DNA from: Candidatus Scalindua sp.
GTDB taxonomy: Bacteria > Planctomycetota > Brocadiia > Brocadiales > Scalinduaceae
Assembly: GCA_031316235.1 (NCBI GenBank)
Contig: JALDRA010000001.1
Location: forward strand, 1,020,001 to 1,052,000
Direction of reading: 5' to 3'
DNA length: 32,000 bases
Each line of letters begins with the position of its first letter. The first letter of the stretch is position 1. Below are positions 16,056-26,171 of this stretch, piece by piece. The notes beneath the pieces are model-generated. The model searched no databases. It was not told where the DNA came from and saw only the letters and a list, made by a program, of their open reading frames with translations. Made by a program: the position numbers and the translations under genes.

Positions 16056-16083
16056 ATTATACAATCAGCCTTATACTTGTCAA
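16056..16083 (-). promoter_or_regulatory. Sigma70-type promoter for the HAO-like gene
   Basis: On the minus strand: TTGACA (16083-16078), 16 nt, TATAAT (16061-16056). Both hexamers are perfect consensus. It lies between the hzsA terminator and the HAO-like start and implies a roughly 200-nt leader. Confidence 0.5.
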
Positions 16084-16103: not shown

Positions 16104-16139
16104 AAAAAAAAAGCTGGCATAGTATGATCTATGCCAGCT
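16104..16139 (-). terminator. Rho-independent terminator after hzsA
   Basis: The minus-strand RNA forms a perfect 11-bp stem AGCUGGCAUAG-AUCAUA-CUAUGCCAGCU followed by U9. It lies 40 nt after the hzsA stop. Confidence 0.8.
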
Positions 16140-16179
16140 TACGTACTACACTGATTCAGAAAATCGCCTTAAGGCTGAT

Positions 16180-18597
16180 TTATCTCCTTGAATATCCAGG
16201 ATATGGATCTGGTCCCTGAATATTATCCCACTGTGCACCCAAATCTACCCACTCAACAAACAGGTATCTTTCTTCAGGAGTCAGGATTTTGTTATGCATT
16301 ACCCTGCCTTCTAGTGGGAAGGTGTTATCACTTGTTGCAAACTGTGATAATGGTTCCTCATAGAGCCTCCAGATAAGAGGGCTATTGATAGCAGCACTTG
16401 GATTCACGTATCTACCACCAATGTTCTTATCCTTACCCTGCAGAGGTGCCAGCAAGCTGTTGTAAGAACTGCTGAAGGCAGCAATCCCATCAACAGAAAC
16501 CAGCTTTGTGCTACCGGCGAGATTAGGTGCCTGCCCAGAGCTATGGCAGCTGGCACATTTTGCATCAATTAATGGCTGAATGTCTCTTCTGAAATCGACT
16601 GTTCTGAGTTTGTCAATATTCAAACCTTCAACCTTCTGTGATGTCGTACCAGAAGCACCACCGTAGTAAACGTCAGCTGGTACAACAACGTCTTCACCAT
16701 GCTTTACCCCGGCGTATTTACCATTCTTATCAATTCTGACATTCGCCCACATAAATGGCGAATCGTAATGGCTTAAATCACTATACCACCAGTTGTAAAG
16801 AGCTTTCGAATGGATATTCTTATACCCCCTCTTGTCATATGAACCCCAGTGGCATCCAGTACAGATTCTCCCACCATAAGGCCTTACATATGCCCATGAA
16901 AGCTGCGTCTGAACTGCCATGCCATTCTCATCAAGGATCTGAGCACAGTATGGCTCATCTCCGGGATGTGAGCTTACAACAGAACCATCATCTTCAACGT
17001 ACTGATAACCAAACATACGTCTCTGAGTAAACATGGTACCTGAGTTACTACTTGTTCTTTCACCACCAAGCAGGTGCCTACCTGCACCAACGATAAACCT
17101 GGAAGAATCCGGTTCTTTTGTCTCGATAGCGTTCAGCGTTCGAATCGCTTTCACATCACCATGCTTCATCTCCTTGGCCCTCTGATGCGGATATGGACCA
17201 ATTGGAAGATTAGTCAAGGTAGTATCAAAACAGATAGTAGTACTCCAGGAGTGCGGATATCCTTCGACGTTCACCTGATCAAAAGGCTGGTACGTCACCG
17301 TGGTAACACCAAATTCTTTACCAGCAGTAAAAGAGTTAATCCATCTTGGTTTATAACGAGGATATACTGGCTGTGGCTGATGATCGTTCCACTCAGGATC
17401 ATCATAAACCTTCTCACCGACGGTTCCCTTGCTTGCATCAAACCAAAACAGGCCGAAATCCTGTCTCTCTGAAGATGAAACCATCAACCTTCCATCTGGC
17501 ACAGGGAATGGACTCCTGTAAAGCCTCCCATCATTATTAAGTCTTGATTGAGTCTTGGCATGAGGAGTCGTCCAGCTAACCCTTGCAAGATTTCCAACAC
17601 CTGAATTGTAATCCAAGGCCTCAATATAATACAGATATCCGTCCACAGCTTCCCTTGCCTGAATTTTAGCAGTGTGTGGCTGCTCAGAACACTCATTACC
17701 ATAAATATGCCTTGGATATGATCCATCCCAGTTATCAACTATGAGACAGACACTTCCTTTACCCCCAGCCCGTGGCCCATTTGCCTGTGTACTGCTGAAC
17801 ATAATATTTCCGTCACGAGTTAAAGCTGGATCAAAATCAGAACTTACATTATAGGTAATCCTGTCAGCAACAGAATTTGTGCTCGGCATATCGATACCCA
17901 TAAGTTTGTGACCACAGATTCTGTCCATCATGTTTCCACCCTGCGGATCAAGCCTGTAGAGGCTGTACGAGTAATTATTATAATACTCATCCATAGCGTC
18001 TGCAGGTGAGTATGTGATGATCAAGAAGCCAGTTTTCTCAACTTCTCCTCTCACTTTCCAGTCACCTTCAAAATACCTGTCTCGTGAGATAACCCTGCCT
18101 TTACCAGACTCTATGGCACCGGCCGCATAATAGATCGGGCTCCTTGCTGTACCAGGCAAATCAGTCAACTGCCTTACACCGGAACCATCAATATTCATTT
18201 CCCAGATTTGACATCCACCACCGTTTTTATGAACACCGGCAAATGCAACTCTTGAGCAATCCCAATTTAGGCAGGGATCAAAAGCGCTCTGAAAATCATT
18301 TGTTAAAACCTGCACACTTCTTGTTTTCATATTATATGAAACTATCCTGCTATTATTGGAAACATAGTTCGGATATTGATGATACGGATCACCAGCACTT
18401 GTAGGCTTCGACTGAGTGAAGATAACAGAGTCAATATTCCCCTGTATCTCCTTTGACATACCCCAATAGTCACCCCAAATAGCCTTACCCGGCTGGTGAC
18501 CACCTACCATTACCTGTGCCTGGCAAGTTGAACCTAAAAGTCCACTTATTGCCACAGCACCAGCTAACGCCATTGTCGCAAAAAATCCCTTTTTCAT
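16180..18597 (-). CDS. hzsA: Hydrazine synthase alpha subunit
   Basis: 805 aa from ATG 18597 (GGAAAGGAGA upstream), with signal peptide MKKGFFATMALAGAVAISGLLGSTCQAQV. A long haem-free N-terminal region is followed by two CxxCH motifs (CTGCH, CASCH) in the C-terminal third. It is the last gene after hzsB-hzsC. Size, haem layout and synteny match my recollection of kuste2861. Confidence 0.9.
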   Translation of the reverse strand: MKKGFFATMALAGAVAISGLLGSTCQAQVMVGGHQPGKAIWGDYWGMSKEIQGNIDSVIFTQSKPTSAGDPYHQYPNYVSNNSRIVSYNMKTRSVQVLTNDFQSAFDPCLNWDCSRVAFAGVHKNGGGCQIWEMNIDGSGVRQLTDLPGTARSPIYYAAGAIESGKGRVISRDRYFEGDWKVRGEVEKTGFLIITYSPADAMDEYYNNYSYSLYRLDPQGGNMMDRICGHKLMGIDMPSTNSVADRITYNVSSDFDPALTRDGNIMFSSTQANGPRAGGKGSVCLIVDNWDGSYPRHIYGNECSEQPHTAKIQAREAVDGYLYYIEALDYNSGVGNLARVSWTTPHAKTQSRLNNDGRLYRSPFPVPDGRLMVSSSERQDFGLFWFDASKGTVGEKVYDDPEWNDHQPQPVYPRYKPRWINSFTAGKEFGVTTVTYQPFDQVNVEGYPHSWSTTICFDTTLTNLPIGPYPHQRAKEMKHGDVKAIRTLNAIETKEPDSSRFIVGAGRHLLGGERTSSNSGTMFTQRRMFGYQYVEDDGSVVSSHPGDEPYCAQILDENGMAVQTQLSWAYVRPYGGRICTGCHWGSYDKRGYKNIHSKALYNWWYSDLSHYDSPFMWANVRIDKNGKYAGVKHGEDVVVPADVYYGGASGTTSQKVEGLNIDKLRTVDFRRDIQPLIDAKCASCHSSGQAPNLAGSTKLVSVDGIAAFSSSYNSLLAPLQGKDKNIGGRYVNPSAAINSPLIWRLYEEPLSQFATSDNTFPLEGRVMHNKILTPEERYLFVEWVDLGAQWDNIQGPDPYPGYSRR

Positions 18598-18710
18598 AAG
18601 TTGGGAGTCTCCTTTCCTCTCGTATATAAAATTACACAATTTAATAATTTCTCAATTATTTCTGAAATCCATAGCCCCTATTTTGGAGGCTATCTGATCA
18701 GTAAAACACC

Positions 18711-19736
18711 TTAAAGAGCCTTCATAAACTCAACAAGGTCCTGTAATTCCTGATTACTCAGATGCGATGTAACACCATGCATATCCTTTGTTGTAACGGA
18801 GTTATCAATCGTATCCATCAGAGTCTCAGCACTGCCATCATGGAAATAGGTACCGGACGCATAGATATCCCTCAATGTCGGGGTATCAAATTCCTTTACC
18901 AGATCCAATCCGATAATCGGCACATCATAATCCTCACCATATGGATCAACTCCTTTTTCCAACGCTGCGGTATTGAATACCTCACCTGGTGTCGTCCTGA
19001 ATCCATCCCTTCCTACCCTTCCGGTTCCAACGTCATGAGTCTGAGCATCACTGAACAGTGCCCTTGGGTTGTTAGGATCTCCCGGATGGCACTCAATGCA
19101 TCCCACCTTCGGATCACTGAAAACCTTCCAGCCTCTCTTTTGAGCCTCGGTCATCGATCCATCTGCATTGCGGAAAGGACTACCCGTAAACTCTAAAGAA
19201 CGGATGTAAGCAACCAATGCCTCCAGTCTTTCAGGCGAGAAGTTCTCACTTCTGAACACAAATCCAGGGTCTCGTCCGCATACCCTGTCGATTGATGATG
19301 TAGCACCTACGATCTCATCAGGATGACCCGTAAATCCTTCATGCCTGAATGGAGGGAGGTACCTTCCGCCACGGATGTACTTCGTATTCTTCCAGCTGCC
19401 CCAGCCTTCATCACCAAGATCCCAGATCAGACCTGTTGTCTGACCTCTCTCATAGTGACAGCTTGCACATGAGTACTCACCCTGTAAAGTCCATGAATTC
19501 TCATTAAACTGAAATTGTCCATACCTTACCAGTTCGCTCTTGTAAGGTGAATGCTTCACCCTGTAATGCACCTCAGGGACAGTCAACGGCTCTCCTCTTT
19601 CCAATGGAGCCCATTCCGGCCCTGTCTGTATAGTCGCTATAACCTGAGCCTCTCCTGCATCAGCAAACTTCACAGTTGCAGTCAGGCAAAAAAGACACAG
19701 GGTAGCAATTAAGCTCAACACAAACATCTTCCTCAT
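18711..19736 (-). CDS. hzsC: Hydrazine synthase gamma subunit (dihaem, cytochrome c peroxidase/MauG-like)
   Basis: 341 aa from ATG 19736, with a perfect AGGAGG 6 nt upstream and signal peptide MRKMFVLSLIATLCLFCLTATVKFADA. Two CxxCH motifs (CASCH, CIECH). The longer listed ORF, which overlaps hzsB, is an upstream extension without an SD. Confidence 0.9.
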   Translation of the reverse strand: MRKMFVLSLIATLCLFCLTATVKFADAGEAQVIATIQTGPEWAPLERGEPLTVPEVHYRVKHSPYKSELVRYGQFQFNENSWTLQGEYSCASCHYERGQTTGLIWDLGDEGWGSWKNTKYIRGGRYLPPFRHEGFTGHPDEIVGATSSIDRVCGRDPGFVFRSENFSPERLEALVAYIRSLEFTGSPFRNADGSMTEAQKRGWKVFSDPKVGCIECHPGDPNNPRALFSDAQTHDVGTGRVGRDGFRTTPGEVFNTAALEKGVDPYGEDYDVPIIGLDLVKEFDTPTLRDIYASGTYFHDGSAETLMDTIDNSVTTKDMHGVTSHLSNQELQDLVEFMKAL

Positions 19737-19798
19737 TACCAACCTCCTAAAAAAAACAGTTAAAGTTAAATACTCAAAAAACCCCAGCCATACAATAA

Positions 19799-20935
19799 TC
19801 AATCAAGCGGAGTCCTGATTACGGATACATTATTCGAAAAATAGTTCGCAGCATAACATATCTTACCATCCGGAGACAGCGCAACTGAACTTGGCCCGAG
19901 TCCTACATTCACCCTCTTCACCAGGTAGTCTACCATAATCGTAAGATCATCCTTCATCTCATCCAGCTCATCCTGTGAGCTGGTCTGGATGATCTCTGTC
20001 ATCTTACCCAGATCAAGAATAGTAACCCTGTGCATACCCCTTACACCGATGTACACATATTTACCCTCTGGACAGATTGCGATTCCATAGGGATTACCAT
20101 CGTAATTGTTGTGCTCATCGAGTGGAAACTGTGCAACTTTACCGCCAGCCCTCGTCTCAACCATTGCAACATTGTTTGAGAAAATCTGGGCATTTTCAGC
20201 CTCGCAGACAGGCAGCCAGTTCTTTGGCTGTTCCATCGTAAAGAGAACGTACTTACCATCAGGAGTATACTCAACGCCCCTGAAGTTGGCGCTACCGGGT
20301 ACTACCCTTGTCTCAGTAACCCTGCCTGTTGCAAGGTCAATGAAATCAACGCACCTGTTTATTTTGCCCGTCGTATCAAGAACAACCGCGGCTTTCTTCC
20401 CGTCAGGAGATATCGCTATATCCCTTGGACCATAGTCAGATGTCCTGATCTCACCGATTTTGTTGTTCATTGCTGTATCAATGATATCAACAGTGTTCCA
20501 CATACTTCCTGAGCAGCACACATATGCCTTCGAACCATCCTTAGACAGCTTTATGCTGCATGGCCAGTCGCCAACTTTGATGGTCTTTATTACTGCCTTG
20601 GTGCCCACATCAATGATGGAAACTGAATCACTTTCAGCGTTACATACATACAGCGTTCTCCCATCTTGAGTACATACCGTTGCTTCCGGCTGTACCTGAA
20701 CAGGCACTTCACCGGTAACTTTCCTTGTTCTCGTATCAACAAAAGTCACACTGTGGCCTGACTGATTTGCAAGAAACAACGTACCGCCATCAGGAGAAAC
20801 CGATACGTGAAACGGGGAAGGATGTTCAGTCCTCACCCTTGTACCCTGAATAAAACCGGCACTGGCACTTTGAGATATCGCCAGAGATACCAAGCCGGCC
20901 CCGAGGATACTCCAAAATAAACTCCCTTTTTTCAT
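19799..20935 (-). CDS. hzsB: Hydrazine synthase beta subunit (haem-free beta-propeller)
   Basis: 378 aa with signal peptide MKKGSLFWSILGAGLVSLAISQSASA and no CxxCH. It has repeated YVTN-type blades (DGGTLFLANQSGHSVTFVD, DGRTLYVCNAESDSVSIID, DGSKAYVCCSG..VDIID, DGKICYAANYFSNNVSVI). AGGAGGTG lies upstream of the ATG. Confidence 0.9.
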   Translation of the reverse strand: MKKGSLFWSILGAGLVSLAISQSASAGFIQGTRVRTEHPSPFHVSVSPDGGTLFLANQSGHSVTFVDTRTRKVTGEVPVQVQPEATVCTQDGRTLYVCNAESDSVSIIDVGTKAVIKTIKVGDWPCSIKLSKDGSKAYVCCSGSMWNTVDIIDTAMNNKIGEIRTSDYGPRDIAISPDGKKAAVVLDTTGKINRCVDFIDLATGRVTETRVVPGSANFRGVEYTPDGKYVLFTMEQPKNWLPVCEAENAQIFSNNVAMVETRAGGKVAQFPLDEHNNYDGNPYGIAICPEGKYVYIGVRGMHRVTILDLGKMTEIIQTSSQDELDEMKDDLTIMVDYLVKRVNVGLGPSSVALSPDGKICYAANYFSNNVSVIRTPLD

Positions 20936-20971
20936 TCTTCACCTCCTAAAAGTTAACAAAAAACACTAAAA

Positions 20972-21559
20972 TTAGAAACTCGGAACATGTGGACACTCAC
21001 CCGACTTCTTGCAAACAGTCTCCAGTGGTTTCCCACACTCCTCACAACTGCCAGGGTCTACCAACGTAGGGATATACTCGACCTTTTCATCAAGTTTATG
21101 CCCTCTCCCTGGATGCTCAAAGGTCTTACCACAACCCGTACATTTAAAATCAATCTTAGACCAGACTTTCTTACTGTCTATATCGCCCATGCATACTTCA
21201 CAACCACCCGGATTAGGCATACACTTTTCATATGCCTCACACTCCTTCTCGATACAGCTGAATTTGATCCTTTCACAGCCCCAGGCCTCAGGAAGATCCT
21301 GATGTTTTTTCGCTTCATCATACTCCTCAGAACCAGATTCATATTTCTTAAAGTCCCAGATGTAATTAATATTTTTACAGTCTTTAAACTCGTTAATTTC
21401 CTTACATATCGGACAATAATAATGCAACTGAATCTTTTTTTTCGGACATTCACCCTCAGCATATACCGAGCTCACCTGACCAACTGCCAGATTTACCAAA
21501 AACATGCAAGCAAATATTGCAATGACAAGACGTCCCATCCTTCTTTTTACTGTAAACAC
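20972..21559 (-). CDS. Secreted cysteine-rich protein (multiple CxxC knuckles), first gene of the hzs transcription unit
   Basis: The mature part has 16 Cys, including CPIC, CEVC, CTGC and CEEC pairs, and no CxxCH. The signal peptide is (MFTVKRR)MGRLVIAIFACMFLVNLAVGQVSSVYA. The start is either GTG 21559 (AGGGGGTGA 4 nt upstream) or ATG 21538. The ORF-track start at 21661 lies upstream of the promoter. Confidence 0.7.
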   Translation of the reverse strand: MFTVKRRMGRLVIAIFACMFLVNLAVGQVSSVYAEGECPKKKIQLHYYCPICKEINEFKDCKNINYIWDFKKYESGSEEYDEAKKHQDLPEAWGCERIKFSCIEKECEAYEKCMPNPGGCEVCMGDIDSKKVWSKIDFKCTGCGKTFEHPGRGHKLDEKVEYIPTLVDPGSCEECGKPLETVCKKSGECPHVPSF

Positions 21560-21635
21560 TTCTTCACCCCCTTTCACAACAAAAAAACGTTCTCGAATTA
21601 AAACCAAAATCAATTCAGACATTTTCTCAAGAGTT

Positions 21636-21651
21636 AGCAGAAAGCATGCCA
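21636..21651 (-). promoter_or_regulatory. Sigma54 (-24/-12) promoter upstream of the Cys-rich gene and hzsBCA
   Basis: The minus strand reads TGGCATGCTTTCTGCT, against the consensus TGGCACG-N4-TTGCW. The GG-N10-GC spacing is exact. It lies about 75-100 nt upstream of the first start codon and 180 nt downstream of the stop of a sigma54 activator gene. Confidence 0.6.
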
Positions 21652-21832
21652 AAAGCGGCATCTAATTTTTTGTACTCTAAACCTAAACATACTAAAATCT
21701 TACAAAATTTTCTTTCTATCGTAAACATCAGTATTAAAAGAATGTCGCGGCGCAAATAAGCCATAGCATTCGATAAACCGCCAGCACACCAAACCTACCA
21801 GAAGCCCTGCATATTGTCAATAGTTTTATAAA

Positions 21833-23224
21833 TTAATTGCTACCATATTTTTCCAACCGATACCTCAGTGTCCCACGTGTCAAACCCAGCATTTTCGCAG
21901 CTTTTGTTTTATTATTATTACTTTTTTTCAGGGCCTGTAATACAATCGTTTTCTCAACTTCTTCAAGGCAAATACCCTCCGGAGGTATTTCAAAATCAAT
22001 CGAAACCTCCTTTTTTCCCTTATCACCACACTTACCATTCGAATTACCCTGCTTCGTAAGGTTTAAAGGCAGATGCTCTTCATGTATCGTATCCCCCTTA
22101 CACAAAATCACCGCCCTCTCTATACAATTCTTTAACTCCCTAATGTTACCTTCCCAGACATTTGAGATGAGCAGCTTTTCAGCATTCCTTGAGATTTTCA
22201 TGAGGCATTTACCCATTTTGACTGAGTAGCGCTCGATGAAGGTATTTACCAGAGAAATAATATCCTCTGATCTTTCACGAAGAGGTGGTATTTGGATTGG
22301 AAATACGTTGATTCGGTAAAAGAGGTCCTCTCTGAAGTCCCCTTCTTTTACAAGCTGTCCAAGGTCTTTATTGCTTGCACAGATAATTCTCACATCTACC
22401 TTCACTGTTTCTGAACCCCCGAGCCTTTCCAGCTCCCTTTCTTCAACGACCCTCAATACCTTTGCCTGGATAACAGGATTCATCTCAGAAATTTCATCTA
22501 GAAAAAGAGTCCCCCCATTAGCTAATTCAAATCGACCTTTTTTGCTCTTTTCAGCACCAGTAAAAGCCCCTTTTTCATAACCAAACAATTCACTCTCTAA
22601 CAGATTTTCCGGCAGGGCTGCGCAATTTATCGTAACCAACGGTCCACTCTTTCGAAGACTATTGAAATGAATAGCCTTGGCAACCAACTCCTTCCCGGTT
22701 CCACTTTCACCATAAATCGAAACAGTAGAGTCTGTCCTTGATACATCGCCTGCCAACAAAAGAACTTCAAGCATTTTGGGAGAGTTGGTAATGATAGTCC
22801 CAAAATTGTAATGCGACTCTAATTCGTTGCGCAGGTATCTATTTTCAATTGTAAGAGATCTAATCTTAATAGCCTTTTTAATCGCAACAGCCAGAGCATC
22901 CCCCTCAAAAGGTCTGGGGATATAGTCAAATGCCCCCTCCTTCATCGCCTTAACCGCTATTTCCACGGAGTCATCTCCGGTAATAATAATGACCGGCAGT
23001 TCCGGATCCTTCGATTTTAAACGCCTCAAGAATTCAAGACGACCAATCCTGGGTGACCTCAGATCGGTTATAACCAAATGCACTCTTTCGCAGTTGATAA
23101 AATCTAATATTGACAATTCACTCTGCACTTTAACAAGTTCTACACCTGCCACTTCTTCAAGAATAACCCCAATATTTCGGATCATCCGCTCTTCATCATC
23201 AGCTACCAGTACCCTACTTTTCAT
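21833..23224 (-). CDS. Sigma54-dependent response regulator (NtrC family enhancer-binding protein)
   Basis: 463 aa. The receiver domain has VLVADDEE...VITDL. The AAA+ domain has Walker A GESGTGKE and the sigma54-contact loop GAFTGA. The C-terminal Fis-type HTH is KTKAAKMLGLTRGTLRYRLEKYG. Confidence 0.95.
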   Translation of the reverse strand: MKSRVLVADDEERMIRNIGVILEEVAGVELVKVQSELSILDFINCERVHLVITDLRSPRIGRLEFLRRLKSKDPELPVIIITGDDSVEIAVKAMKEGAFDYIPRPFEGDALAVAIKKAIKIRSLTIENRYLRNELESHYNFGTIITNSPKMLEVLLLAGDVSRTDSTVSIYGESGTGKELVAKAIHFNSLRKSGPLVTINCAALPENLLESELFGYEKGAFTGAEKSKKGRFELANGGTLFLDEISEMNPVIQAKVLRVVEERELERLGGSETVKVDVRIICASNKDLGQLVKEGDFREDLFYRINVFPIQIPPLRERSEDIISLVNTFIERYSVKMGKCLMKISRNAEKLLISNVWEGNIRELKNCIERAVILCKGDTIHEEHLPLNLTKQGNSNGKCGDKGKKEVSIDFEIPPEGICLEEVEKTIVLQALKKSNNNKTKAAKMLGLTRGTLRYRLEKYGSN

Positions 23225-23279: not shown

Positions 23280-24164
23280 TCAGCAACAAAGTGTTACCAG
23301 AGAACAAATCAGCGAAGCGAGCATAAATCCAACAATGAGCAGACCGACAACAAGAAACGGCAGCCCCATTATTTTTGAAACAAGGCTCCCGCCACAACCC
23401 GCTGGCCTGACTCTCAGAGCTTCCAACTCACCATTTTCCTTCAGCCTCTCATAATAAGCACCTCTCTCGTGAGACATATGCTCTTCAGAAATCCGTCCCG
23501 TAAACATCGCCTCGTCAACCGGCATATTTTCCGGGAGCAAATGGGTGTGAAAAAAATGGATCGTAAAGATAAAACCTGCCGCCAGCAAAGCCTCGTACCT
23601 GTGTGCCACCAGGGCCAAACTTGGCAGATCAATGATACTGGCAAGATTAACCGGCACCAGGCTGGTTGCCTGCACCGGAAACCAGAGGACAAAACCTGTA
23701 GTTGCCATGACAAATGTGCCCCACATAAGCGACAGATACTCCATTTTTTCCCAGTAAATCCACCTATCATAATTAGGACGGCTTCCCAAACGGAAAAACC
23801 ATAAAACATCACCCAAAATATTAAGCAAATCTTTCGGCTGGATCAACAGGGAATCAGGCCCCCAGAAAATGCCCCTGTCCTTCTTAACCAGTGTCTGCAC
23901 CGAAAGGAAAGCAAAATGTAAAAAGGCAGCAAAAAATGTAATCAACGCACAGATTCTATGTATTATACCAGCAGTTGGATACCCACCCATAACTCCATAT
24001 AACCAGTGCGCCCAGCCATAATCCTTAAAGACGAGAGGCATACCCGTTAAAACCAAGCCAAAAAAACTGATAATAACGAGAAAATGACTAAACCTGTGAA
24101 ACAAGCTAAACCTTAAAAAATGACTATCACTTGCCATGTTTTGATTCCTTTCCCTTACGCTCAT
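23280..24164 (-). CDS. Cytochrome-b-like integral membrane protein (FdnI / Ni-hydrogenase cyt b type), putative quinol-oxidising subunit
   Basis: 294 aa with 5-6 hydrophobic helices carrying conserved His (FHRFSHF, IIHRICALITFFAAFLHF, VAHRYE, IHFFHTH). It overlaps the upstream haem gene by 38 nt; the alternative start ATG 24137 overlaps by 11 nt. Confidence 0.75.
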   Translation of the reverse strand: MSVRERNQNMASDSHFLRFSLFHRFSHFLVIISFFGLVLTGMPLVFKDYGWAHWLYGVMGGYPTAGIIHRICALITFFAAFLHFAFLSVQTLVKKDRGIFWGPDSLLIQPKDLLNILGDVLWFFRLGSRPNYDRWIYWEKMEYLSLMWGTFVMATTGFVLWFPVQATSLVPVNLASIIDLPSLALVAHRYEALLAAGFIFTIHFFHTHLLPENMPVDEAMFTGRISEEHMSHERGAYYERLKENGELEALRVRPAGCGGSLVSKIMGLPFLVVGLLIVGFMLASLICSLVTLCC

Positions 24165-25122
24165 CTAATATAGTAGCCAGCCATGTAAGGACTGAATGCA
24201 TACCAAAACCAGAAAATGTCATTACCAAAATACCCACATACATCACAAATAAAATCGTAATAAGCGTCTGAGGACTCTTCACAAGCCCTGCTACCTTCTC
24301 CCGATCACTACGAATATCTTTAACTGCCCCAACGATCGTCTTATAATAATTTATATTCTTATATTGCGGATGCGCAACATGTTTTACAAAAGTGCTGTTT
24401 GCACCTGGATGGCAAGTACCGCATGTCTCTATAAGATTCTCAGAACCCACTGTTGACTCAGGGTCAGATGAATTTAAAATCTTGTGCTGACCATGACAAT
24501 CAACACAGGTCGCTATATCTGTGCCGACATACCCCAGTGCTGTAACCTGACCGTGCAGATTATTACGGTACGAATTAAAAAACTCCTCATGACACCCACC
24601 ACACTTATCGATCGTATCTTTTCTATGTGACAGATCGTCAGCTCTCGGGACATCACGTTTTGATTTAAGTCCGGCATGGCAGTACTTACAAGTCGGAGGC
24701 TGAATATCATTTTCCTTCATCAGCGCCACATGGCTACTTTCAAGAAATTCCTCAGCCGGATCATCATGGCAAAATGTTATGCAATCAACTGGTTGTAAAT
24801 TTGGATAATGCTCCCCCTCCGACTCCTCAAGATCCGCATGACAATCAATACAATAGAAATCTTCACCTCCATGAGCAGAAGCGTGAAAGGCCTCTTCGTC
24901 AACCAGCATGGATACTATTTCAACCTCGCCTGTTACATGGTCCACCCTCACCTTAACATCAACTTTAGAGGGATCAGTATGGCAATCCAAGCAATCATTA
25001 TTTTCTTGAGCATGAAGACAGTATGAAGAAACAGCGGAAATGAGAACAGCAAGGAACGCTACAAAAAGAAACCTCACCGCTTTATTATTGACAGCTCCAC
25101 AAGTGCTGAGAATGGATGCCAC
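24127..25122 (-). CDS. Heptahaem cytochrome c with C-terminal membrane anchor
   Basis: 331 aa from a GTG start, with AAGGAGGGA 8 nt upstream. Six CxxCH motifs (CLDCH, CIDCH, CKYCH, CGGCH, CVDCH, CGTCH) plus one CxxxCH (CITFCH, 24766-24783). It has an N-terminal signal and the C-terminal helix LITILFVMYVGILVMTFSGFGM. Confidence 0.85.
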   Translation of the reverse strand: MASILSTCGAVNNKAVRFLFVAFLAVLISAVSSYCLHAQENNDCLDCHTDPSKVDVKVRVDHVTGEVEIVSMLVDEEAFHASAHGGEDFYCIDCHADLEESEGEHYPNLQPVDCITFCHDDPAEEFLESSHVALMKENDIQPPTCKYCHAGLKSKRDVPRADDLSHRKDTIDKCGGCHEEFFNSYRNNLHGQVTALGYVGTDIATCVDCHGQHKILNSSDPESTVGSENLIETCGTCHPGANSTFVKHVAHPQYKNINYYKTIVGAVKDIRSDREKVAGLVKSPQTLITILFVMYVGILVMTFSGFGMHSVLTWLATILDERKGKESKHGK

Positions 25123-25424
25123 TGTATAATTCCCTCCTTTTGCTAAAAAGGTTGTACCTAGCTAACCTAAATGGGCATACTTTTCTAACGACAACCGGCC
25201 AATAAATCATAGCAACATCCGCCACACTACGAATCAATCTTCCTGTTTGCCGGGCATGTCCAATAAATACTTCAAATCACTACAAGGTAATCCTAATGAC
25301 TCATAATAAAAAAATTCATTGGGTGGTGAGCCAGTCTCACCAAGACCTCTCTCCCACCCAATCAACCCTAACACCCCTACAACTATTCAGCTCCAAACTA
25401 ACGAATCACATCAAACCAACAGCA

Positions 25425-26171
25425 TCAATGCTTCGCATTACTTGGTTTTGTCTGAAACAGTGGATCTTTCTCAATATACCCTTTCCACTTATTCTTATCC
25501 ACCGTCGGCAATACATCATCGATAGGATCGTGGTCTCTATGATCGTCAAGTTTAAAATATTTTTTAAAGTCCATGACTATAGGCTTGCCAGTCTCCTTGT
25601 CATTGCCAGCCTTTGGACACTTATTTTTATCATTTGCGTCTTCCCAATGACACTCCAGACACTGCTCTCTAATAGTGTCATATTTGTTAATACCAGCCAC
25701 AATCAGCCCGGCATCAAACTGTACCTTCCTCGCCATCATCGGGTCTTCTTTCAGAAGATTCTTAAAAGCATCTTTTCCCTTTTTGTTGTAATTCTTTTTT
25801 ACATCAACATATGCTTCCCCTGGACCGTGACACGCTTCACAGGTAACATTCTCCAGAAAATCACCATATTTGGATTTCCCTTTTTTAATCTTCATACCAT
25901 ACGCCGTTGCATGACACCTCAAACACTCTGGATTTGTCTTCTCTTCATCGGTCACCAACCTCTTATTAAATGTTTTCGAATGCAATCTCGCCTTATACTC
26001 TTCACCCTCAAAACACCCCTTCGACAAATGGCACTTACAGCCAGAATTACTCATATACTTGTATTTCTGCTTATCAGCCCCAAAACTTTGAGACCCCTGA
26101 AAAACAAAGACCGACGATACGACCACTACAGCAAAAACTATCAAAAACGCTCTCAAGCTGCGACTCAACAT
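25425..26171 (-). CDS. Trihaem cytochrome c (cytochrome c554-like multihaem family)
   Basis: 248 aa with signal/anchor MLSRSLRAFLIVFAVVVVSSVFVF. CxxCH motifs are CLRCH, CEACH and CLECH, plus an odd CKCH at 26028-26039. The antisense 301-aa ORF (25296-26201) is rejected. Confidence 0.85.
   Translation of the reverse strand: MLSRSLRAFLIVFAVVVVSSVFVFQGSQSFGADKQKYKYMSNSGCKCHLSKGCFEGEEYKARLHSKTFNKRLVTDEEKTNPECLRCHATAYGMKIKKGKSKYGDFLENVTCEACHGPGEAYVDVKKNYNKKGKDAFKNLLKEDPMMARKVQFDAGLIVAGINKYDTIREQCLECHWEDANDKNKCPKAGNDKETGKPIVMDFKKYFKLDDHRDHDPIDDVLPTVDKNKWKGYIEKDPLFQTKPSNAKH

Follow-up and report, generated by a model that had tools for sequence, protein, structure and literature searches.

Directly upstream of the hydrazine synthase (HZS) genes of anammox bacteria lies a gene for a small, exported, cysteine-rich (Cys-rich) protein, which we tentatively propose to be an accessory factor of HZS, stabilised by zinc and present in substoichiometric amounts. 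The gene was analysed in a stretch of 32,000 nucleotides from Candidatus Scalindua sp. (GenBank assembly GCA_031316235.1, contig JALDRA010000001.1, positions 1,020,001 to 1,052,000; hereafter, the window, to which coordinates given without a locus name refer). Anammox, which is responsible for a large share of global nitrogen loss, has hydrazine synthase as its defining enzyme. The function proposed here is one that we infer from the invariant adjacency of the gene to the HZS genes, the inserts specific to the anammox proteins, the strong constraint on the sequence, and the co-regulation with hzs, which together would tie it to HZS.

The gene, its parts and its immediate surroundings are the following:

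20972..21559, minus strand: coding sequence of the Cys-rich protein, 195 amino acids plus a TAA stop codon; positional counterpart of kuste2858 / KSMBR1_3600 of Kuenenia
21458..21559, minus strand: predicted Sec-type signal peptide, residues 1-34, with the predicted cleavage between VYA and EGE
20975..21457, minus strand: mature domain of 161 amino acids, with three zinc-ribbon-derived modules, 16 Cys, and two anammox-specific inserts
21565..21571, minus strand: Shine-Dalgarno-like GGGGGTG, read directly from the sequence, 5' of the GTG start
20936..20971, minus strand: spacer of 36 nt to the HZS beta gene, holding AGGAGGTGA, the strong ribosome-binding site of that gene, and no terminator

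The GTG found seven bases after the GGGGGTG is the start codon of the gene, and the starts of the homologues, either ATG or GTG, fall in the same alignment column. A longer open reading frame (ORF) beginning at ATG 21661 (database entry P0001, 218 amino acids) was rejected as mis-called, since it crosses the sigma54 promoter described below. The database calls P0001, P0004, P0008, P0011, P0014, and P0016 extend the N-terminus by 15-25 residues across this promoter (21560-21661 in the window, minus strand), and these extensions are probably annotation errors. The gene itself is real and under purifying selection, with a ratio of non-synonymous to synonymous substitution rates (dN/dS) of 0.035-0.06 in comparisons with three orthologues.

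An earlier reading of this gene, made from the sequence alone (hereafter, the sequence-only reading), had described a signal peptide followed by about 160 residues, with four CxxC pairs (CPIC, CEVC, CTGC, and CEEC), eight further Cys and no CxxCH, encoded 36 nt upstream of hzsB and behind a sigma54 promoter. This description holds in full, with a leader of 34 residues, a mature part of 161 residues and exactly 16 mature Cys; the minus strand had been left unstated. There is no CxxCH haem-attachment motif in the Cys-rich protein, which is not a c-type cytochrome. Its leader comprises a basic n-region and a 17-residue hydrophobic core, followed by the predicted cleavage site; the mature protein would begin with EGECP... 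in the window and with AWDKPC... in Kuenenia and Brocadia. An N-terminal hydrophobic leader is kept in all family members in the alignments, with no conserved twin-arginine or RRxFLK motif across them. The export that had been claimed is thus borne out by a Sec-type leader common to the whole family, and the compartment would most likely be the anammoxosome, where HZS resides. A lipoprotein reading of the leader was rejected, as C18 is unconserved and the lipobox is poor.

The distribution of the family follows that of anammox. A word-indexed search retrieved 17 Scalinduaceae homologues of the window protein, the window coming from a Scalindua of the AMX11/SCAELEC01 type (88% identity for the Cys-rich protein). 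A profile run exhaustively against 1.84 billion representative proteins gave only 27 hits, including proteins of Brocadia, Anammoxibacter, and Brocadiales. A second profile search and the scan of one genome per GTDB species extended the family to Kuenenia, Brocadia (with one locus in the complete genome of B. pituitae), Jettenia, Loosdrechtia, Subterrananammoxibius, and the Bathyanammoxibius/Avalokitesvara type. The family so defined covers 51 species genomes, all of them anammox, and its close relatives are found in anammox bacteria only; all members are annotated as hypothetical. Conservation of the gene upstream of the HZS genes across anammox genera had been put forward as a check in the sequence-only reading, and a homologue was found in this position in 63 of the 63 loci fetched from the 51 species genomes, which come from every anammox family sampled. 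The comparison of the window cluster proteins with these loci by tblastn recovered, always in this order, the genes for the multihaem cytochromes and the cytochrome b, the sigma54 regulator if present, the Cys-rich protein, and HZS beta, gamma, and alpha. The Cys-rich gene stays 5' of HZS beta where the regulator is missing (L007, L010, L011, and L060-L063), and it is never found elsewhere in the genomes sampled.

These loci also connect the window gene with published ones. In the Kuenenia cluster kuste2854-2861, whose published gene order agrees with that of the window, kuste2857 has been described as a sigma54 regulator and kuste2858 as an "unknown protein". The latter (also KSMBR1_3600 and KsCSTR_28180) occupies the same slot as the window gene, between the regulator and the first HZS gene, and belongs to the same gene family; the homology runs through two loci of the genus, Kuenenia hertensis (L023) and Kuenenia sp. 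(L024), whose proteins are 45-47% identical to the window protein (tblastn E 6e-48 and 1e-47, respectively), kuste2858 itself being matched by position. In S. profunda, the counterpart by position and size is scal02636, an unknown protein of 18 kDa encoded after the regulator scal02635; scal00024 and scal00026 were rejected as counterparts, since the assembly breaks inside the HZS gene. Many Brocadiaceae contigs end no more than about 150 nt after the Cys-rich gene (L023, L027, L030, L031, L036-L039, L043, L044, L046-L049, L052-L055, and L058), which fits multi-copy, near-identical hzsBCA genes against single-copy genes for the Cys-rich protein, the regulator, and the electron-transfer module. 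In Kuenenia, two or three hzsBCA copies have been described along with one copy of the Cys-rich gene, the extra hzsBCA copies being devoid of it.

Searches of Pfam, NCBIfam, and PDB sequences with the window protein returned nothing significant. Its best Pfam matches, all below threshold, were zf-C2H2 (E 0.14) and Zn_ribbon_8 (E 0.15, with 12.5 bits against a cut-off of 34.4), and it fails the gathering thresholds of both Zn_ribbon_6 (PF07191) and the heavy-metal-binding domain HMBD (PF19335). Two distant relatives, P0033 and P0040, do pass Zn_ribbon_6 (29.6 and 29.4, respectively, against 25), and one of them also passes HMBD (25.5 against 23.6). The relatives from outside anammox bacteria, which represent the weakest matches of the exhaustive search, are secreted proteins of 140-190 amino acids with three CxxC...CxxC modules and a CxxSGTFPH end. 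The alignment of the anammox family was compared by hhalign with an alignment of these secreted triple zinc-ribbon proteins, from metagenome-assembled genomes (MAGs) of non-anammox Planctomycetota, giving a probability of 99.4% and an E of 2.3e-21 over 133 columns. Judged by this profile kinship, the Cys-rich protein is a divergent branch of a rare secreted triple zinc-ribbon family. The zinc-ribbon-like knuckles of the sequence-only reading are therefore well founded, given that the relatives include members passing Zn_ribbon_6 and HMBD; that an exported zinc ribbon is odd, as was also stated there, is less so than claimed, since the whole wider family is secreted.

Both branches share the signal peptide and three [C]xxC...CxxC modules, which lie between conserved single Cys in the motifs CxKK[IV], CxKxG[YF], and CxxSGTxPH. 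The anammox branch differs in that a helical segment (YIWDF...HQDLPEAW) stands in place of the second knuckle of module 1, in an insert of about 20 residues in module 3 (GxGHKLDExxEYIPTL), and in the gain of two Cys, C113 and C189; contrary to the anammox proteins, the non-anammox relatives are not linked to HZS genes. In an alignment of 18 sequences from Scalinduaceae, C175 is Asp in one member, the other 15 mature Cys are invariant, and so are about 40 non-Cys positions. An AlphaFold2 (AF2) model of the mature domain, built with an alignment of 45 diverse sequences, reached a pLDDT of 83.8 and a pTM of 0.72, and is mainly beta with two short helices; it replaced an earlier run with the full-length protein and 18 close sequences, which was unusable (pLDDT 51). 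The comparison of this model with the PDB by Foldseek gave no whole-fold match (best E 0.6, TM at most 0.2) and local matches only, to zinc ribbons that include the HMBD of a CopA ATPase. Of the profile and structure checks suggested earlier, then, a confident model and a profile kinship were obtained, whereas no Pfam threshold was passed and no fold in the PDB was matched. A metallothionein was ruled out by the 10% Cys content (against about 30%), the 16 aromatic residues, and the confident beta-rich model. In one database protein (P0024, 824 amino acids, JGI), a C-terminal Cys-rich domain comes after a long N-terminal region with repeats; the sequence where the two meet looks like the cleavage region of a signal peptide, and this entry may be a gene-call or assembly artefact and not a true fusion.

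The cysteines vary between clades. In the Anammoxibacter/Subterrananammoxibius clade, Asp replaces C175 (CPDDG), and the Bathyanammoxibius-type clade is without C143 (CPDGH) and has a His nearby, which leaves 15 Cys in each case; both changes fall in one and the same predicted site (C140, C143, C172, and C175), and the other Cys are all kept in the two clades. Brocadia proteins have 17 Cys. The apparent loss of Cys in P0103 and P0097 looks like a frameshift or deletion artefact, and both were left out. Odd Cys counts, together with the exchange of Cys for Asp or His within a knuckle, would be tolerated by metal sites but not by disulfide pairs, which favours metal. From this comparison, the Cys-rich protein probably binds metal, and zinc would be the favoured one for a chain exported by Sec; the metal-binding protein of the sequence-only reading gains indirect support from the variants and the homology. 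The same 16 cysteines could instead be arranged in eight disulfides, stabilising a small binding or structural protein that carries no metal. Sec export and the even Cys count of the window protein agree with such a disulfide-knotted protein, and AF2 is unable to separate metal sites from disulfides. We consider it unlikely, however, given the whole clades with 15 or 17 Cys and the Asp taking the place of Cys inside a CxxC, the homology to families matching zinc-ribbon and HMBD models, the CxxC...CxxCG spacing typical of metal knuckles, and the hydrazine and hydroxylamine contained in the likely compartment. Were the metal iron, the protein might act as a rubredoxin-like carrier with several Fe(Cys)4 sites, by which HZS would receive electrons from the quinol-oxidising module whose genes lie upstream. 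The electron-transfer module and HZS do share one cluster, the mRNA is abundant in Kuenenia, and the Cys4 knuckles with CxxCG resemble those of rubredoxin and would be able to bind a tetrahedral metal. Even so, such a carrier is quite improbable: there is no rubredoxin match at E up to 5 in Pfam and NCBIfam, the Sec export of an unfolded chain favours zinc over iron according to the Irving-Williams order, a soluble trihaem cytochrome, the proposed carrier, is already encoded in the cluster, the protein amounts to about 1% of HZS, and the ligand set differs between clades. Moreover, rubredoxins are cytoplasmic proteins of about 50 amino acids with a single site, whereas the Cys-rich protein is exported, has a mature part of 161 amino acids, and would be multi-site.

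The genes surrounding the Cys-rich gene in the window, together with their control elements, are listed below in the direction of transcription:

25425-26171, minus strand: trihaem cytochrome c554-like protein (Pfam and motif counts)
24127-25122, minus strand: hexa- or heptahaem membrane-anchored cytochrome (Pfam and motif counts)
23280-24164, minus strand: cytochrome b-like membrane protein (Pfam and motif counts)
23280..26171, minus strand: electron-transfer-module genes overall, in the same order in all loci
21833..23224, minus strand: NtrC-type sigma54-dependent response regulator, counterpart of kuste2857 (Response_reg, Sigma54_activat, HTH_8)
21636..21651, minus strand: sigma54-type -24/-12 element TGGCATgctttCTGCT, with 2 mismatches to TGGCAC-N5-TTGCW, about 77 nt 5' of the GTG start
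19799..20935, minus strand: HZS beta-propeller subunit, counterpart of kuste2859 and the hzsB of the sequence-only reading (Pfam beta-propeller)
18711..19802, minus strand: HZS gamma, dihaem (two CxxCH; CCP_MauG and cytochrome c matches), with a probable start at 19736 (MRKMFVL...)
16180..18639, minus strand: HZS alpha, ORF bounds (PF18582 HZS_alpha, E 5.6e-22)
16111..16140, minus strand: intrinsic terminator with a 12-bp stem and a T-run, which ends the unit formed by the Cys-rich gene and hzs beta-gamma-alpha

No other terminator was found between the Cys-rich gene and the one at 16111-16140. The HZS beta gene of the window is 94% identical to that of the Scalindua AMX11-type locus, and the HZS gamma homologues have 341 amino acids. 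Taken alone, the sigma54 element of the window is not significant; it is conserved in related loci, where an element TGG[CT]A[CT]-N5-xTGC is found 51-121 nt 5' of the gene in 41 of the 41 single-copy loci with a sigma54 regulator, and in none of the seven loci where the regulator is missing or, as in L034, reduced to a remnant. The search relied on a scored GG-N10-GC scan, as a strict sigma54 regular expression found almost no sites in the relatives. That the promoter is real, and dependent on the neighbouring activator, is best supported by this co-occurrence of element and regulator. The Anammoxibacter- and Bathyanammoxibius-type lineages (L007, L010, L011/L061, L060, L062, and L063) have the hzs cluster without the sigma54 regulator and promoter, and in L034 there is a regulator remnant only, without the element, so that the regulation of hzs differs between anammox families.

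The published expression data for Kuenenia stuttgartiensis MBR1 show a highly transcribed and regulated gene. KSMBR1_3600 (kuste2858) reached 17,052 reads per kilobase per million (RPKM) under ammonium limitation, against 4,897 under nitrite limitation, with a log2 change of 2.18 that placed it in rank 15 among the genes up-regulated under ammonium limitation, while hzsC was at about 20,300 and about 12,300 per copy under ammonium and nitrite limitation, respectively (PMC7438415 supplement). Upon hydrazine exposure, kuste2858 went down together with hzs (PMC12053348). In the proteome of Kuenenia, the intensity of kuste2858 was 1.4e5 against 1.6-2.7e7 for the HZS subunits, that is, about 1% (PMC6423088), which makes the protein clearly substoichiometric.

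According to the mechanism that we propose, the small protein would be exported by Sec, most likely into the anammoxosome, and its 161-residue mature part would descend from a secreted triple zinc-ribbon protein. The ligands of some three or four tetrahedral metal sites, with Zn(Cys)4 or Cys3X as the most likely types, would be supplied by the 16 conserved Cys, and these sites would cross-link a fold unable to rely on disulfides in a reducing compartment that contains hydrazine. As the first gene of the hzs beta-gamma-alpha unit, the Cys-rich gene would be expressed from the sigma54 promoter, for which the NtrC-type regulator encoded next to it is the presumed activator, and the protein would then play an accessory role on HZS, be it in assembly, maturation, metal handling, or docking. 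We propose that it is neither an HZS subunit nor a haem protein or bulk electron carrier. The literature describes HZS with three subunits, no PDB chain is related to the family, and the intensity in Kuenenia is the 1% given above; the low protein level, the absence from solved structures, and the single copy argue against a subunit. Among the three roles that the sequence-only reading had suggested, a stoichiometric structural partner is therefore the one disfavoured, also by the extra hzsBCA copies without the gene, while a chaperone or a small redox carrier had been named besides it. That reading knew of no characterised function, and our literature searches (cysteine-rich, upstream of hzs, core genome) found none either. 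An analogy for the proposed role is kustc1130, reportedly described by Akram et al. in 2019 as a small assembly factor of hydrazine dehydrogenase: it is likewise small, exported, anammox-specific, and non-catalytic, and binds a key anammoxosome enzyme complex, but contrary to the Cys-rich protein it is not encoded beside its enzyme.

Several points weigh against an accessory factor of this kind. Exported Cys-rich proteins are usually disulfide-bonded. Tight Cys4 zinc sites would be poor metal donors, which weakens the version with metal delivery, and the comparison of folds with the PDB gave no structural match suggesting a function. Support for the metal content, the localisation, and the interaction with HZS is indirect. 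The non-anammox relatives adjoin sigma54 activators without HZS genes, so that the linkage with hzs could be regulatory history. Finally, in S. profunda the transcript coverage of scal02636 was 0.62 against 68 for hzsBC, about 100-fold lower (PMC3655542), and only one peptide was found. This gap would mean that simple co-transcription is not general, or that the mRNA is processed. The co-expression with hzs claimed in the sequence-only reading thus keeps the support of the short spacing and the position of the terminator, from which co-transcription may be deduced, and meets a contrary case in S. profunda. In the same data set, the sigma54 regulator scal02635 had rank 14 with a coverage of 21.5, next to the 0.62 of the adjacent scal02636, a pattern reversed with respect to Kuenenia (PMC3655542 supplement, file 9).

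The regulatory history just mentioned can be developed into a different explanation, where hzs was placed downstream of an ancestral pair, consisting of a sigma54 activator and, as its target, a secreted protein that binds metal and acts in envelope or metal stress; its role would be general metal or stress buffering, without specificity for HZS. The model for such a pair is ZraSR/ZraP of E. coli, in which a sigma54-dependent two-component system governs a periplasmic chaperone that binds zinc, and the likeness lies in an NtrC-type sigma54 activator gene beside a gene for a small exported and presumably zinc-binding protein. Two of the three non-anammox contexts do include sigma54 activators (L064, 5860-8474, and L068, 5151-7558; the third, L067, 7001-7564, has like the others a protein ending in SGTFPH, and none is near HZS-like genes), and some of the relatives carry HMBD-type modules. 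The likeness ends there, as ZraP is an all-helical CpxP/Spy-type protein whose ligands are His and Asp, whereas the Cys-rich model is mainly beta, there is no Pfam match of the Cys-rich protein to the ZraP/CpxP/Spy (LTxxQ) family, and the window cluster is without a sensor kinase gene. We doubt this explanation, because the gene is kept by hzs where regulator and promoter were lost, two conserved inserts were gained in the anammox branch, the gene occurs nowhere else in the genomes sampled, and the response to ammonium limitation is shared with hzs. A leader ORF, coding for a non-functional protein whose translation modulates hzs expression, would suit the first ORF after the promoter, with its GTG start and low protein level; it is effectively refuted by the conservation, that is, by the dN/dS and the invariant Cys plus some 40 other positions, and the peptides detected in Kuenenia and, in one case, for the S. 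profunda counterpart, as well as the confident predicted fold, leave it with a negligible probability. An HZS accessory factor stays the reading we prefer: with adjacency to HZS in each of the 51 species genomes where the gene was found, strong selection, close relatives in anammox bacteria only, high and regulated mRNA in Kuenenia, and no characterisation so far, the Cys-rich protein is an obvious candidate for a missing accessory factor.

A bolder version of this proposal would make the Cys-rich protein the missing fourth component of the HZS system, an anammox-specific zinc-ribbon factor that matures or activates HZS or couples its electron or nitric oxide supply. We regard it as improbable in this specific form. 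If true, the loss of the protein on purification would explain why isolated HZS is far slower than HZS in cells; purified HZS is very slow, and it is unclear whether purification costs activity (PMC7438415). The zinc-stabilised protein, for its part, would represent a clear case of extracytoplasmic zinc-ribbon modules, in a reducing organelle where disulfides may be unusable. The gene already figures in published tables, where it is an unknown protein of the hydrazine synthase cluster (kuste2858 and, by position, scal02636); its universal conservation, zinc-ribbon ancestry, paralogues, and promoter linkage, as well as any function, are not described in the searchable literature.

The paralogues were found in S. 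rubra, S. sediminis, and three other Scalinduaceae MAGs, whose loci carry two copies in tandem (L006, 7369-7998 and 7956-8642; L019, 5335-5949 and 5995-6585; also L016, L018, and L020). The upstream copy, which we call type 2, carries 11 additional residues between C102 and C107, and in four of the five tandem loci the sigma54 element precedes the first copy. The Scalindua clade with fused HZS beta and gamma, to which S. profunda belongs, retains type 2 only, and the clade of the window type 1 only. The divergent gene of the fused clade (37-42% identity, against 79% for HZS beta) could be taken for a fast-evolving orthologue; this was rejected, since the tandem copies show it to be an old paralogue that was differentially retained.

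Two further observations concern the rest of the cluster. A perfect TTGACA-16-TATAAT promoter (16056-16083, minus strand) directly follows the terminator and precedes an octahaem HAO gene, which, given this terminator and sigma70 promoter, would be a separate sigma70 unit. HZS beta and gamma are separate in the window (18711-20935, minus strand), where the two ORFs share 4 nt and the gamma protein starts with a separate signal peptide, whereas S. profunda, S. arabica, and related MAGs have a fused gene for both, the fusion being in-frame in L028, L029, and others.

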